Shown piece after piece: positions 16,509 through 20,702 of a DNA stretch of 33,875 nt (position 1 is the stretch's first letter; every line of letters starts with the position of its first letter). Under the pieces are notes generated by a model. It was not told where the DNA came from and did not search any database. It worked only from the letters and a program-made list of their open reading frames with translations. This DNA is from an uncultured Lachnospiraceae bacterium (lineage in GTDB: Bacteria; Bacillota; Clostridia; Lachnospirales; Lachnospiraceae). The stretch is taken from positions 1-33,875 of the forward strand of contig CADBOY010000036.1 in the NCBI GenBank assembly GCA_902796405.1, in the 5' to 3' direction. A program made the position numbers and the translations under genes.

Positions 16509-18044
16509 TCAGGTAGAAGGTTCCAGACGAATCACCGAAGAGTGGAACAGATAGGGGTAGATCACTTCCGAATTTTCAACTGGATTTCCCGTCTTATGCT
16601 CGTACTTTCGCTCGAACAGCTCCAGCATCCGGATGGAAAGCTTCATATAATCCCGGTTGTAAACCTCATCCAGATCACAGGTGAGATGCTCATCAAGCTT
16701 CCGCAGCCGGTAAATCAGTGTGTTCCGGTGAATATAGAGCTTGGATGATGTCTTGCTCTGAGACCGCTCATTGTTCAGATATTCTTTCAGCGTATCAAAC
16801 AGCTGATCCTTATCATCGATCTTCATCTTCCAGAGCTGCGCGATATCCGGATGCAGCGCCAGGAAAGCCTCGCCGAGCGAGGAAGATTCCATGATATACT
16901 CCATTGCATAATCATAAAACCGGAAATATCTCTGTTCCGGATTCAGGAGCTGCCCGTAACGGATCGCCGCAAGCGCCTGATCGTACAGCGCGCGCAGGCT
17001 GAAGATACTGGCACAGGTCAGACTGGTCCCCACCAGTAGATGATTCCGCTCGGCAAAAGCTTCGATAGAATCATCCTGGCTCTGCTGACATTTCGAGATA
17101 TTACAGATCAGAATGACTTTTCCTTCCCGCCGGAAGGGCTCAGAACCCGGGACCTGATCCTTCAGTGTATTGGCAATCAGCCATTCATTCTGTTCATTCG
17201 GATGGGAAGCGGATTCGGGGAAGGCGAACACAAGGACCTGATAATCATCCTTCTCCTCCCAGTGATAGTATCTGAGCTGACTGTTCACCAGATCCGGTGA
17301 AACCTGCGCTCCGGTGAGCATACTCTCCAGAGCATTCAGATTCGGGAGAGCCCTCCCGCTCTGTCCCTCTTCTTCGTACATCGGAAGGCGAAGAATATTC
17401 CCCAGAAGATCCATCACCTGATAATCACCCGGATTCACCTGCCGCGACTTTTCCAGGAGAGTAAGCCTCCCGCAGAAGATGTCATGCACCCGGAGCTGAA
17501 TACTGATGCCGGGAGTCTGGGCGCATTCCGCCGGGCGGAAATGCTGGGTTCCGTCAAGCAGAAGATGCTTATACCAGACGCCGCTGAACTGATTCAGCGC
17601 CGTGACGGAGCAGTATCCCCGGGTTTTCAGGTACTGCCATTCCTCATCCACTTCGTCCTCACTGTACTGGCTGCTGATCCCGAGCACCCGGTAATTGCCA
17701 TTGATCAGAATCAGCGGATTATGGAAAACCGGATAGCAGAAATTGATTACCTGCGCGTAATCGTGATTGCGCACATACTCCTGTATCGTGGCAAACCAGT
17801 CATCGTAGTAATCAAAGGCGTCCTGACAGACCTCGACTACCTCGTTGACGTCAAGATCGTGAAACCGGATCGTATCTGCACCGCCCACACACACCACGTC
17901 ATCTCCATCCGGCTGAACCACGACGCAGTTCGTGGAATAGGCCTTGCGCGCACTGCGAAAGAGCCGCGGTGCATCATCCCGGATGTGAAGTTCCGGCTCC
18001 AGAGCTTCCAGACGATTGGCTAACATCCACATACTGATTCTCAT
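16509..18044 (-). CDS. PucR/CdaR-family transcriptional regulator
   Basis: There is a C-terminal PucR-type HTH (SKTSSKLYIHRNTLIYRLRKLDEHL). The 511-aa length is typical. GC is about 47% in two hand-counted 60-nt lines, lower than the neighbouring genes. Confidence 0.8.
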   Translation of the reverse strand: MRISMWMLANRLEALEPELHIRDDAPRLFRSARKAYSTNCVVVQPDGDDVVCVGGADTIRFHDLDVNEVVEVCQDAFDYYDDWFATIQEYVRNHDYAQVINFCYPVFHNPLILINGNYRVLGISSQYSEDEVDEEWQYLKTRGYCSVTALNQFSGVWYKHLLLDGTQHFRPAECAQTPGISIQLRVHDIFCGRLTLLEKSRQVNPGDYQVMDLLGNILRLPMYEEEGQSGRALPNLNALESMLTGAQVSPDLVNSQLRYYHWEEKDDYQVLVFAFPESASHPNEQNEWLIANTLKDQVPGSEPFRREGKVILICNISKCQQSQDDSIEAFAERNHLLVGTSLTCASIFSLRALYDQALAAIRYGQLLNPEQRYFRFYDYAMEYIMESSSLGEAFLALHPDIAQLWKMKIDDKDQLFDTLKEYLNNERSQSKTSSKLYIHRNTLIYRLRKLDEHLTCDLDEVYNRDYMKLSIRMLELFERKYEHKTGNPVENSEVIYPYLFHSSVIRLEPST

Positions 18045-18114
18045 GACGGGTTCGTTCCCCCTTACGAAACGTCCAGCCGCACCTTTTGTCTCCTGCGGCG
18101 AAATATAAGATATC

Positions 18115-18134
18115 GTTATTAGTAGTTATTAGTA
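18115..18134. repeat. 2 x 10-bp direct repeat GTTATTAGTA overlapping the PucR promoter
   Basis: Two adjacent gttattagta units at 18115-18124 and 18125-18134 on the plus strand. Confidence 0.8.
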
Positions 18135-18139
18135 TAACA
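18131..18139 (-). promoter_or_regulatory. Candidate extended -10 promoter (TGtTATACT) of the PucR-type regulator gene
   Basis: The minus strand reads atatgTTATACTaat, about 85 nt upstream of ATG 18044 and downstream of the URO-D-like gene terminator. Confidence 0.45.
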
Positions 18140-18164
18140 TATATTCCTGTGAGTTTCTGCACGC

Positions 18165-18197
18165 AAAAAGACATGTCAGCTGGGCCGACATGTCTTT
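18165..18197 (-). terminator. Intrinsic terminator of the URO-D-like gene
   Basis: The minus strand reads AAAGACATGTC-ggcccagct-GACATGTCTTT followed by TTgcg, giving an 11-bp stem and a 5-U run. It sits 50 nt after the stop. Confidence 0.75.
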
Positions 18198-18246
18198 GGG
18201 GCCTGCGCAGCAGGAGTTCCGGATGTTCTGGAGTCTGCCCGCACGT

Positions 18247-19326
18247 TTAACTTCTGTGATACAGCTTGTTGTAGTATTCGAGGGAATAATGGTACAGCTC
18301 ATCCATCGCGGCCTGCTGCTGTCTGGGATCGGCCACTTTCAGCAGGCTGGCCAGCATGCGGCCGTGCCTGCCGTAGTGATCCACGAAATCCCGGACATAG
18401 CGCCGCGTCTCCTCTTCGCTGATGCCCGCAGGGATGTCCACGTCGAAGGCAAACGACAGCTTATCGTTGTACTTATAGAGCTCGTCATAAGGATTGGCGC
18501 GGTGCTGCGGACACCAGTAGTCGATCCCCATCTCCACCATCTCGGGGATGTACTGAATGTTTCTGCCGCAGGAGTGAAGCTCAATGAATTTCCCCTGCTT
18601 TTTCACCCAGCTGAGAAACTTCTTCTCATGCGGCATCAGCTGCTCGTCAAACATCTGGTTTGAGAAGAATCCCGACCGCTCCGTGCCCCAGTCGTCGTGA
18701 TAGAGGACACCGTCAATCCGGCCATAGTACTGGAAGACCTTCTGCGTCGTCTCGATCTTATAGTCTGCCATCCTGTCGAAGAACTCATCCAGAAGCTCAG
18801 GCTCCTCATAGAACGCGATCAGCGATTCATCAAAAGGGATCAGCTCATGCAGACGCTCAAAGATCCCCTCCGTGCACTCGTAGATATGAACCCGCTCCGG
18901 ATCCAGATTTCTCTGGATTTTCTTCCCGTCGGTCTCAAAATCCACCTCGGAGATATCCGGCCACTCCAGTTCATCCTTCCACCGGGAGAAATCGGATATG
19001 GTCCGCGTTCCGGGCTTCGTGATCATCCCGCCGGCGGAATCCACCATCTGCCAGTAGACGCCCCACCAGTCATAGCCGGTGACTTCCGGGACCGGATGCT
19101 CCTCGATGGTGTCCGGCCACACGATGCAGCTTTCCTGAAAATAACAAGGCATCCAGTACGGCTGATTCCCGGTCACGGCGCGAATGTAATTCTCCTTCAC
19201 CGGGATCACCCGCTTTGGCATCGGTGGTTTGGGCATCTGCACCAGCGCCGGGAATGTCCCCGGCACCGTCCAGCTCTTCGAATAATCCCGCTCCGATGCG
19301 CGCTTCATAAATCTGCCTACCGCCAT
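18247..19326 (-). CDS. Uroporphyrinogen-decarboxylase (URO-D) fold protein, MtaA/CmuA-like family
   Basis: The track ORF starts at GTG 19335. ATG 19326 is preferred because AAGGAG lies 8 nt upstream. At 359 aa it has the (beta/alpha)8-type pattern, with IELHSCGRN late in the sequence as in URO-D-like methyltransferases. The family call is from memory. Confidence 0.65.
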   Translation of the reverse strand: MAVGRFMKRASERDYSKSWTVPGTFPALVQMPKPPMPKRVIPVKENYIRAVTGNQPYWMPCYFQESCIVWPDTIEEHPVPEVTGYDWWGVYWQMVDSAGGMITKPGTRTISDFSRWKDELEWPDISEVDFETDGKKIQRNLDPERVHIYECTEGIFERLHELIPFDESLIAFYEEPELLDEFFDRMADYKIETTQKVFQYYGRIDGVLYHDDWGTERSGFFSNQMFDEQLMPHEKKFLSWVKKQGKFIELHSCGRNIQYIPEMVEMGIDYWCPQHRANPYDELYKYNDKLSFAFDVDIPAGISEEETRRYVRDFVDHYGRHGRMLASLLKVADPRQQQAAMDELYHYSLEYYNKLYHRS

Positions 19327-19456
19327 GCTCCTCACTCCTTTACTTCATCATCCCTCTGCCTGGATCGCAGCAGGCTGAACCTGAATGTCAGAAAGCCACC
19401 TTTCCGCATTATGCCAACACGGCACAATGCGGGCAGCGGCGATGGATTGGGTTAGC

Positions 19457-19632
19457 CTATGATAATTACGGATCGTTCCACGCTTCGCGTTCTCACGATC
19501 CTCCCGGCATTCGCATTCTCGTGCTGCTTCGCGGCACTTCATGCTCATGTCGGGGCGTGTCTTAAAATCACCCGCCCACTTTTGTGCAGGCACAACGTGG
19601 GCTGTGATTTTAATCCACTGTAATTATCATAG
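19457..19632 (-). ncRNA. Candidate structured RNA or palindromic element (unclassified), a 176-nt four-way junction
   Basis: P1 is a 13-bp perfect stem, 19457-19469 with 19620-19632. Three internal hairpins span 19470-19501, 19503-19554 and 19557-19618. Together they give 64 bp by hand, and the junction linkers are 0/1/2/1 nt. The strand assignment is tentative; see the findings. Confidence 0.4.
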
Positions 19633-19697
19633 TTTAGATAGTCAGAACCGATAACGTGCAGTTTGTACAAAGAAAAAGGGGAGAAAAATAAGAGGAA

Positions 19698-20702
19698 TTA
19701 GGCAGAAAAGTCTCCCGCCTGGTTCATGCTGATACGGAGCAGTCTTCGCATGTCTTCCGGGAGCGGTGCCGTCAGGCTGATGGGAGCACCGGTAAATGGC
19801 TGCCGGAAAGTCAGGGATACGGCGTGGAGTGCGGCTCGCCCAATCAGGTCACTGGTGCCGCCGTACATCACATCCCCGAGCAGCGGATGCCCGATCGCCG
19901 CCATATGCGCGCGGATCTGGTGCATCCGTCCGGTATCGATGCGGACACGGATAAAAGTGACTCCGGAAGACGAAGCAGCTTCAGCGGGCTGCTGCAGTTC
20001 TGGCTCCGGGCAGGCACGGAAGAGGGCCTCTTCTTCCTCTGGAGAGAGAACCTGGTAATGCGTCACCGCGTATTTTCCTTCGTCGGAGATGATGACGCGG
20101 CAGACATTATCCGGATCCCGGTGGATCGGCAGATCGATGGTTCCCGTCTTCTGCGGGAGCGTACCGGTAACGGCAGCAATATACTCTTTGCGCAGGAGTT
20201 TCCGCTCCCGCTGGCGGACCAGCCGTCCTGCGGCAACCTGGTTTTTCGAGAACAGAATCACGCCGGAGGTCGCCGCATCCAGACGGCCAGCGGCACGCAC
20301 GCGAATCATCTCCTGCTTCTGGCTGAAGTAATAGAGAAGCATATTGACCAGAGTGTCATCCTGGTGCATGCCGGCCGGATGAGTGGGAACACCAGCGGCC
20401 TTGTTCACGGCGATCAGATCCTCGTCCTCATAGAGGATATCCAGAGGTGCCGGATTCAGCGCAATTGGTTTTCCTTCTTTCGCGGAAGACTCAAGCTCCA
20501 CCTCTACTATATCTCCGGGAACAAGCCGGTACGTGACATATTTCTTCTCCCCGTTCACGAGGATGCCGCGCGGGCGGTACTTGAGCTGGCGGATCTGCCG
20601 CCTGGTAAGGCCTGCCGTCAGGCGGAGATAATCACCGAGGATCACTGGAGCCGTCGCCATCAGGCGCAGAGTACGCTGATCCGGTCTGCTGTTTTCTGTC
20701 AT
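19698..20702 (-). CDS. RluA-family (RluD-like) 23S rRNA pseudouridine synthase
   Basis: There is an S4-like N-terminus (LTRRQIRQLKYRPRGILVNGE), the catalytic block GRLDAATSGVILFSKN, and TGRMHQIRAH. It has a roughly 25-aa acidic/Pro insert before the last block. The start overlaps the ispD stop (ATGA). Confidence 0.85.
   Translation of the reverse strand: MTENSRPDQRTLRLMATAPVILGDYLRLTAGLTRRQIRQLKYRPRGILVNGEKKYVTYRLVPGDIVEVELESSAKEGKPIALNPAPLDILYEDEDLIAVNKAAGVPTHPAGMHQDDTLVNMLLYYFSQKQEMIRVRAAGRLDAATSGVILFSKNQVAAGRLVRQRERKLLRKEYIAAVTGTLPQKTGTIDLPIHRDPDNVCRVIISDEGKYAVTHYQVLSPEEEEALFRACPEPELQQPAEAASSSGVTFIRVRIDTGRMHQIRAHMAAIGHPLLGDVMYGGTSDLIGRAALHAVSLTFRQPFTGAPISLTAPLPEDMRRLLRISMNQAGDFSA

Follow-up and report, generated by a model that had tools for sequence, protein, structure and literature searches.

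The element of 176 nt at positions 19457-19632 is one copy of the Clostridiales-1 RNA, carried on the minus strand of the window, by which we mean the whole stretch of 33,875 nt that was analysed; we put the probability of this assignment at about 0.98. It is an already known element of a catalogued family that has been in Rfam since 2010, and it represents neither a new RNA class nor a riboswitch. The family as a whole is very probably a dispersed and tandem repeat of Lachnospiraceae and related Clostridia, the four-way-junction fold of which is under selection on one strand.

Clostridiales-1 RNA was described by Weinberg et al. (2010, Genome Biol 11:R31), who reported significant covariation and considered it a likely RNA, rated neither cis-regulatory nor a switch. 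The alignment header of these original authors bears the flag '-mergeTandem', from which it appears that tandem copies had already been noticed by them. Rfam curators list RF01699 under the type Gene; sRNA. A full-text literature search with the family name and the accession returned no paper that gives Clostridiales-1 RNA a function, and it is still an orphan family; its RNA is abundant in the gut of humans and animals. Testable leads are offered by its head-to-tail arrays, by a TAA-bearing 5' arm that often supplies the upstream stop codon, by its placement right behind terminators, by its highly expressed housekeeping neighbours (groEL, rplS and eno) and by its absence at the orthologous locus.

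Classification

Rfam 15, searched with the whole window, gave exactly one match at the gathering threshold, RF01699 Clostridiales-1 RNA. The match (cmscan) spans 19460-19629 on the minus strand and model positions 1-166 of 166, with 122.4 bits against a threshold of 48 and an E-value of 1e-27. A permissive Rfam search of 19300-19750 revealed no family besides RF01699 at E <= 1, and a covariance model built here from 24 homologues scores the window element at 182 bits. The P3 internal-loop sequences of RF01699, UGAGCAUGAAG and GGAAUGCGAAU, are present at 19537-19548 and 19509-19518, respectively. The sequence-only reading of this DNA had called the element a candidate unclassified structured RNA and had tied that claim to the lack of a confident Rfam hit; the full-length match therefore overturns it on its own terms.

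Structure of the element

On the minus strand, 19457-19632 folds with a minimum free energy of -86.5 kcal/mol, against -43.6 +/- 3.9 kcal/mol in 200 dinucleotide shuffles (z = -11.1; 0 of 200 as good). The plus-strand fold reaches -84.0 kcal/mol with z = -12.5. The minimum free energy fold is the Rfam consensus structure of RF01699, a four-way junction in which stem P1 closes three hairpins. A junction with a 13-bp P1 and three hairpins had been drawn from the letters alone and is borne out by the computed fold. The helix counts given for P3 and P4 stand as well, with P2 now at 3+10+6+5 bp instead of 3+10+5+5 and paired nucleotides at about 130 of the 176 instead of 128.

P1 consists of 13 bp between the 5' arm CUAUGAUAAUUAC (19620-19632) and the 3' arm GUAAUUAUCAUAG (19457-19469), both placed by the fold and by covariation. 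The 5' arm is AT-rich, with TAA and TGA triplets and a -10-like TATGAT (19631-19626). The three hairpins, all on the minus strand, are supported by the fold and by the Rfam alignment. The long hairpin P2 (19557-19618) has a GA/GA internal loop and ends in a CCUG tetraloop in the window copy, as against CUUG in the family. P3 (19503-19554; 4+3+4+4+2 bp) has a GCGAAGC tip and holds the invariant internal-loop sequences of the family. These are the block AUGAGCAUGAAG on the 5' side of the loops (19537-19548), which was used in the search pattern, and the block GAAUGCGAAU on their 3' side (19509-19518), which is also seen in the Rfam alignment; both are invariant columns across 24 sequences. P4 (19470-19501; 7+4 bp) has a purine-rich internal loop and a second GCGAAGC tip. 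Both loop features that had been read on the minus strand, the tandem GA/GA internal loops and the pair of GCGAAGC tips, are present there and agree with the Rfam consensus.

The window copy shares with the RF01699 consensus the four stems, the invariant P3 blocks AUGAGCAUGAAG and GAAUGCGAAU, the tandem G-A loops, the GAA and CUUG-type terminal loops, the host range (Clostridiales, gut) and the lack of a fixed gene association. Its differences from the consensus (P1 of 13 bp against 7, a few non-canonical pairs on this strand, P2 loop CCUG against CUUG) concern nothing essential.

Covariation and strand

A search pattern made from the two invariant P3 blocks found at least 118 loci in a one-genome-per-species collection. 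A covariance model built from 24 of the pattern loci gave 111 matches among the matches listed, and these form the basis of the family statistics. Nearly all real pattern matches listed come from Lachnospiraceae and related Clostridia of gut, rumen and mouth, and the non-Bacillota loci among the matches listed are weak partial matches of at most 24 bits.

Across the 111 homologues among the matches listed, standard pairs fill 86% of the pair cells, against 59% in shuffles, double-sided changes are found in 61 of 64 pairs, and the covariation score is 0.49, against 0.14. Shifting the 3' partners by 1-3 columns in the same alignment of listed matches lowers pairing to 29-47%. All four stems covary among these listed homologues, P1 included, where 13 of 13 pairs show double changes. 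P2 (alignment helices 2-6) has compensatory changes in every helix, the P3 pairs that flank the internal loops (helix 9) are 99% paired, and P4 (helices 12-14) is 94-99% paired with compensatory changes present, again among the matches listed. The P3 internal-loop columns are invariant across 24 aligned sequences. With compensatory changes in all four stems, the earlier view of a genuine conserved structured element is upheld.

In the homologues among the matches listed, 323 G-U pairs stand against 167 A-C mismatches overall, with a ratio of about 2:1 in each helix of the non-redundant set of these listed matches, which is modest for an RNA. The GNA, CUUG and tandem G-A loop motifs occur on the Rfam strand only. 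The Rfam strand, which is the minus strand of the window, is favoured because of the excess of G-U over A-C and because the loop motifs are confined to it, in agreement with the minus-strand reading of the loops made from the letters.

Surroundings of the element in the window

An RluA-family gene lies upstream of the element on the minus strand and ends at 19698, and the terminator scan found a terminator-like hairpin at the end of this gene (19700-19720, minus strand), about 65 nt before the element. On the downstream side, the separate 12-bp hairpin that had been pointed out at 19404-19432 is real and extends to a bipartite 18-bp hairpin (19395-19440) with the arms GCCGCU..CCGCAUUGUGCC and GGCAUAAUGCGG..GGUGGC, followed by UUUCU; hairpin and U-rich stretch together occupy 19390-19440 on the minus strand. 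They make a weak candidate for an intrinsic terminator between the element and the URO-D-like gene, and the hairpin at 19395-19440 lies under the threshold of the terminator scan. The ribosome-binding site and start codon of the URO-D-like gene are found about 60 nt past the bipartite hairpin. The distance from the element to this gene is 121 nt to a GTG at 19335 or 130 nt to an ATG at 19326, in keeping with the 120 nt first stated.

A 3' tail at 19437-19456 (minus strand), recognized from the listing of flanks, same-genome alignment and a duplex test, contains AAUCCAU (19449-19443), which complements GUGGAUU (19618-19612) in the basal part of P2. In the subfamily to which the window copy belongs, a tail of about 22 nt beyond the Rfam model is part of the repeat unit, in which the P1 3' arm is followed by TTTTG(A/C)C.. 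and ATCAT (flanks of L102, L008, L107, L096, L052, L115, L116, L032 and L090). The tail complements the P1 5' arm as well as the P2 base and changes with both, the partners being TGCAAAA/TTTTGCA, GTCAAAA/TTTTGAC and, in the window, TGGATT/AATCCA. It could be an alternative pairing or what is left of a partial tandem unit. In the duplex test, the tail of the window copy came 8th of 82. A 5'-complementary 3' tail as a family-wide trait was rejected, with cognate duplexes at -12.5 and non-cognate ones at -11.3 kcal/mol; the trait belongs to the window's subfamily only.

The closest available homologue of the URO-D-like protein (P0001, 90% identity) is encoded on contig L119, which has the gene order of the window: rluA 3' end, intergenic region, URO-D-like gene and PucR regulator. 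The covariance-model search found no Clostridiales-1 match on L119, and the bipartite hairpin at 19395-19440 is absent from its orthologous leader. The two intergenic regions align only from TTTGTAC...TGCACGTTATC through TATGATAA and are then unrelated until the ribosome-binding site. No element was found at L122, where the RluA-family protein is 80% identical, nor at L120, another URO-D/PucR locus. Since L119, L122 and L120 are all without the element, it is not a conserved leader of URO-D-like/PucR genes.

The block that is common to both intergenic regions, TTTGTAC-N4-TGCACGTTATC ... TATGATAA, has identical spacing at 19626-19672 (minus strand) of the window and at 115-172 of L119. It contains a promoter-like pair made up of a -35 box TTATCG (19654-19649; TTATCA in L119) and, after 17 nt, the -10 box TATGAT (19631-19626). 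This TTATCG-N17-TATGAT pair is under the threshold of the promoter scan, and the block looks like a weak promoter or operator. Its TATGAT falls on the P1 5' arm, and a start 7-9 nt past it would give a transcript without that arm.

Genomic context of the family

Neighbours were taken from crude ORF calls, and the nearest genes were scanned against Pfam, which provided 91 upstream and 81 downstream genes among the matches listed. The upstream genes fall into 113 Pfam families and the downstream genes into 129, none of them at more than 3 loci and, downstream, none at more than 2 among the matches listed. URO-D and PucR are not recurrent: among the 81 downstream genes of the matches listed, only the window's own belongs to the URO-D family. 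No transposase, integrase or reverse transcriptase was detected with Pfam in the roughly 170 flanking genes of the matches listed. Highly expressed housekeeping genes adjoin several listed copies, namely groEL (three times), rplS (twice), enolase (eno), PGK (pgk), DnaK (dnaK), SHMT and IMPDH.

Orientation was counted in the 42 copies among the matches listed that have both neighbours at most 400 nt away. Relative to the element, the upstream and downstream genes have the same direction in 24 copies, the same and the opposite direction in 7, both the opposite direction in 6, and the opposite and the same direction in 5. Co-directionality with the upstream gene is seen in 31 of these 42 well-flanked copies among the matches listed, and about a quarter of the listed copies are antisense to their neighbours.

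A same-strand upstream ORF ends within the first 14 nt of the element in 25 of 55 cases among the matches listed, and its stop codon therefore sits in the P1 5' arm. In the non-redundant copies among the matches listed, TAA occurs in the P1 5' arm of 61 of 75 but in the 3' arm of 20 of 75, any stop triplet in 70 against 38, and a -10-like box in 20 against 8. Upstream intrinsic terminators were recognized at 17 of 79 testable loci among the matches listed, and in 13 of these 17 the element starts on the T-run; a terminator at most 110 nt downstream was found at only 8 of the 79. At tight intercistronic copies the ribosome-binding site of the next gene lies 14-60 nt past the element. Neither a scan nor inspection by eye gave a consistent promoter upstream of the copies among the matches listed, and a promoter shared by them was rejected as a candidate. 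A perfect TATAAT marks the 5' edge of the copies in L054, L086, L104, L109 and L111. Clostridiales-1 prefers the 3' edge of genes and has no association with any particular gene. No report of the stop-codon, terminator-adjacency or TAA-asymmetry statistics was found in the literature searched for Clostridiales-1.

The element is immediately behind groEL in three Lachnospiraceae genomes (L035, L070 and L089), with three different P1 sequences that touch or overlap the stop codon. The Gly/Met-rich C-terminal codons of groEL lead straight into P1 in all three, and the position looks like a conserved one, not like independent insertions.

Repeat behaviour

Several copies per genome are present, among the matches listed, in Oribacterium sp. 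F0262, Bilifractor porci, DOME_MAG_3113, Lapin-024 bin84 and 'eubacterium 1-6', and copies from the same genome are about 90% identical to each other. Array units abut head to tail, up to four in a row with spacers of 0-1 nt among the matches listed. Rfam calls four such units in L086 (1831-1999, 2001-2172, 2173-2344 and 2346-2517) and pairs of units in L104, L027, L091, L047 and L029. One contig of Bilifractor porci carries three head-to-tail copies (L040 7784-7949 and L069 1-137 and 159-325). A 16S rRNA gene starts about 430 nt from this triple, which is oriented away from it.

At least 20 of the 111 matches among those listed are no more than about 300 nt away from a scaffold gap or from the true end of a contig, as is expected if repeats break assemblies. 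Copies truncated at the 5' end (L097 5783-5953 and L090 84-271) keep the exact 3' end and the tail, and in another degenerate copy (L109 5677-5808) the inner part of P2 is missing. Different species carry the element at an identical place behind the same gene at L065/L118, L042/L093, L014/L031 and at the groEL loci L035/L070/L089.

Inspection of flanks showed no direct repeats, and with them no target-site duplications, at the boundaries; it was made without a clean pair of filled and empty sites, L119 differing over its whole leader. The sequence-only reading was right to keep a DNA-level or MITE-like element in play, in view of the many dispersed and tandem genomic copies; of the two marks of a MITE that it had named, dispersed copies are found and target-site duplications are not seen at the flanks.

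The copies in DOME_MAG_3113 have an additional hairpin inside P2, and in L048 P3 is enlarged by a 27-nt insertion.

Proposed mechanism and alternatives

At slightly less than even odds, Clostridiales-1 is a highly stable RNA module that is transcribed together with its neighbours and lies between cistrons or at the 3' ends of mRNAs. In the mechanism that we infer, the element would have no dedicated promoter or terminator and would be carried along in the transcript of the flanking operon, within the 3' UTR or between cistrons; its 5' arm would typically start on the stop codon of the upstream gene or right behind a terminator. The very stable, compact junction would act at the RNA level; possible roles are a barrier to 3'-to-5' decay, a mark for processing, or the binding of a partner by way of the purine-rich loops that are invariant in P3 and P4. 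The window copy would simply have landed between the RluA-family gene and the URO-D-like/PucR pair and would exert no specific regulation on them.

We favour such a module because intercistronic copies must be transcribed in the sense direction, arrays leave no room for promoters and few copies have terminators of their own. Where the next ribosome-binding site follows 14-60 nt past the element there is no room for a promoter, and sense RNA must therefore, we infer, be made. A parallel is offered by the REP/BIME (REPIN) sequences of Proteobacteria, which are likewise dispersed and clustered intergenic repeats right behind genes or between cistrons, with covarying stems; as is proposed for Clostridiales-1, their stable hairpins are co-transcribed and can protect upstream mRNA. 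REP/BIME sequences differ in being simple hairpins of about 35 nt that occur in hundreds of copies and are mobilised by RAYT transposases, whereas Clostridiales-1 forms a four-way junction of 170 nt, has invariant internal loops and occurs in roughly 5-15 copies per genome, with no linked transposase seen.

Several observations speak against a co-transcribed module. Copies directly behind an intrinsic terminator (13 of 79 among the matches listed) would be poorly co-transcribed, and about a quarter of the listed copies are antisense to their neighbours. Genes in Firmicutes are mostly co-oriented with replication, and the orientation bias of the copies could therefore be a preference for a replication strand instead of an effect of transcription. 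The P1 5' arm is -10-like in many copies, that of the window included, and a start just past it would give an RNA without P1. The 2:1 excess of G-U over A-C is modest for an RNA, and single-stranded DNA, too, gives very stable GCGAAGC hairpins and tandem G-A pairs.

A rather doubtful alternative is a mobile or selfish repeat at the DNA level (MITE-, REPIN- or PATE-like), the fold of which would matter in single-stranded DNA, for example as the substrate of a transposase or recombinase acting in trans, with any RNA being incidental. The multiple copies dispersed among unrelated genes, the tandem arrays, the assembly breaks, the truncated and internally deleted copies, the antisense quarter among the matches listed and the empty orthologous locus in a relative with 90% protein identity all fit such a repeat. 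Junctions placed exactly at stop codons and at the T-runs of terminators, together with the TAA of the 5' arm, have the look of tolerated or targeted insertion, and the unit of the window's subfamily has an additional inverted copy of its own 5' end. Correia elements (CREE) and other bacterial MITEs are similar in size (about 100-200 bp), have inverted termini with -10-like boxes, lie beside many unrelated genes and are transcribed with those genes. Clostridiales-1 departs from them in that no target-site duplication was found at the inspected boundaries, its internal helices covary and its strands are not equivalent, as judged from the ratio of G-U to A-C and from the loop motifs. Terminal inverted repeats alone would leave the covarying P2-P4 and the invariant internal loops unexplained, unless the helices form in single-stranded DNA. 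The roughly 170 flanking genes of the matches listed, free of transposases, integrases and reverse transcriptases, likewise argue against a DNA-level repeat, as does the lack of matches in phages and plasmids and of any match of substance in viral contigs. The same-position copies across species (L065/L118, L042/L093, L014/L031 and the groEL loci) argue for long residence.

It is unlikely that Clostridiales-1 is a free-standing gene for a trans-acting sRNA, with its own promoter, defined ends and several paralogous copies, that acts on a protein or on other RNAs. The type assigned by the Rfam curators agrees with such a gene, and so does a compact fold with a closing terminal helix, a trait shared by many stable RNAs. 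Copies with a divergent upstream gene need a promoter of their own, and several have a perfect TATAAT (L054, L086, L104, L109 and L111). The window itself offers the upstream terminator at 19700-19720, the weak TTATCG-N17-TATGAT site and the downstream hairpin with UUUCU. Against this, the -10-like boxes overlap the P1 5' arm, and a transcript from there would be without an arm that covariation shows to be paired. The array spacers of 0-1 nt leave no room for promoters and, among the matches listed, a downstream terminator accompanies only 8 of 79 copies, 25 upstream ORFs extend into the element and the scan found no consensus promoter.

We consider it quite improbable that Clostridiales-1 is a self-propagating structured repeat that encodes no protein and homes to the 3' ends of genes (stop codons and the T-runs of terminators) or a switch linked to translation termination; if true, either would be a kind of bacterial element yet undescribed. 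In the self-propagating form, the element could bring its own TAA in the closing stem, and its spreading could depend on the four-way junction for recognition or catalysis, in the form of RNA or of single-stranded DNA. In the switch form, a ribosome stopping within P1 could unzip the junction and free the 3' arm and the tail. Four-way-junction self-cleaving ribozymes (hairpin and twister-sister) also combine conserved loops in neighbouring arms with unit-length head-to-tail arrays; this is a resemblance only, and RF01699 alone matches at E <= 1. The idea that the target supplies the P1 5' arm and the 3' arm serves as a guide (EBS/IBS-like) was rejected, the two arms differing equally between close copies (67% and 63% identity).

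A riboswitch or cis-acting leader of the downstream URO-D-like methyltransferase and PucR regulator, which had been among the first proposals and is suggested by a complex conserved fold lying 121-130 nt upstream on the same strand with a hairpin in between, is very improbable, given flanking genes from more than 100 unrelated Pfam families (129 downstream, with 1 URO-D gene in 81, the window's own, among the matches listed), many copies without any co-directional downstream gene, the rating by Weinberg et al. (2010), and the different, element-free leader of the orthologous URO-D/PucR locus L119, with L120 likewise without the element. Riboswitches and structured 5' leaders resemble Clostridiales-1 in size, multi-stem junction and conserved internal loops, but Clostridiales-1 has no conserved downstream gene class or expression platform, and its copies commonly come after genes, not before them.

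Other candidates tried and rejected

A small ORF of 81 codons (MSMK...; 19348-19593, minus strand) starts at the conserved and invariant ATGAGCATGAAG and has no ribosome-binding site. It is not a gene, because the length of the P3 tip varies by non-multiples of three, the nucleotides downstream are conserved and the stems change by compensation. A tRNA-like element was dismissed after ARAGORN found nothing in 19300-19800 and no Rfam match of the tRNA clan was obtained at E <= 1. A phage or plasmid origin was discarded as well: blastn gave no match to the element in either the phage or the plasmid collection, and the sole match of the pattern search in viral contigs was a partial chance match of 12.6 bits. 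The idea that the tail holds an internal promoter that serves the downstream gene was rejected on account of inconsistent spacing.

Flanking genes of the window copy

Named homologues of the RluA-family and URO-D-like proteins of the window are mostly from Lachnospiraceae and other Bacillota. The URO-D/PucR pair appears to be a conserved unit that is independent of the RNA element. Genes for URO-D-family methyltransferases recurrently adjoin a PucR-type regulator (L119, L120 and 16509-19335 of the window), and at L120 two URO-D paralogues flank the regulator, together with an MFS transporter.
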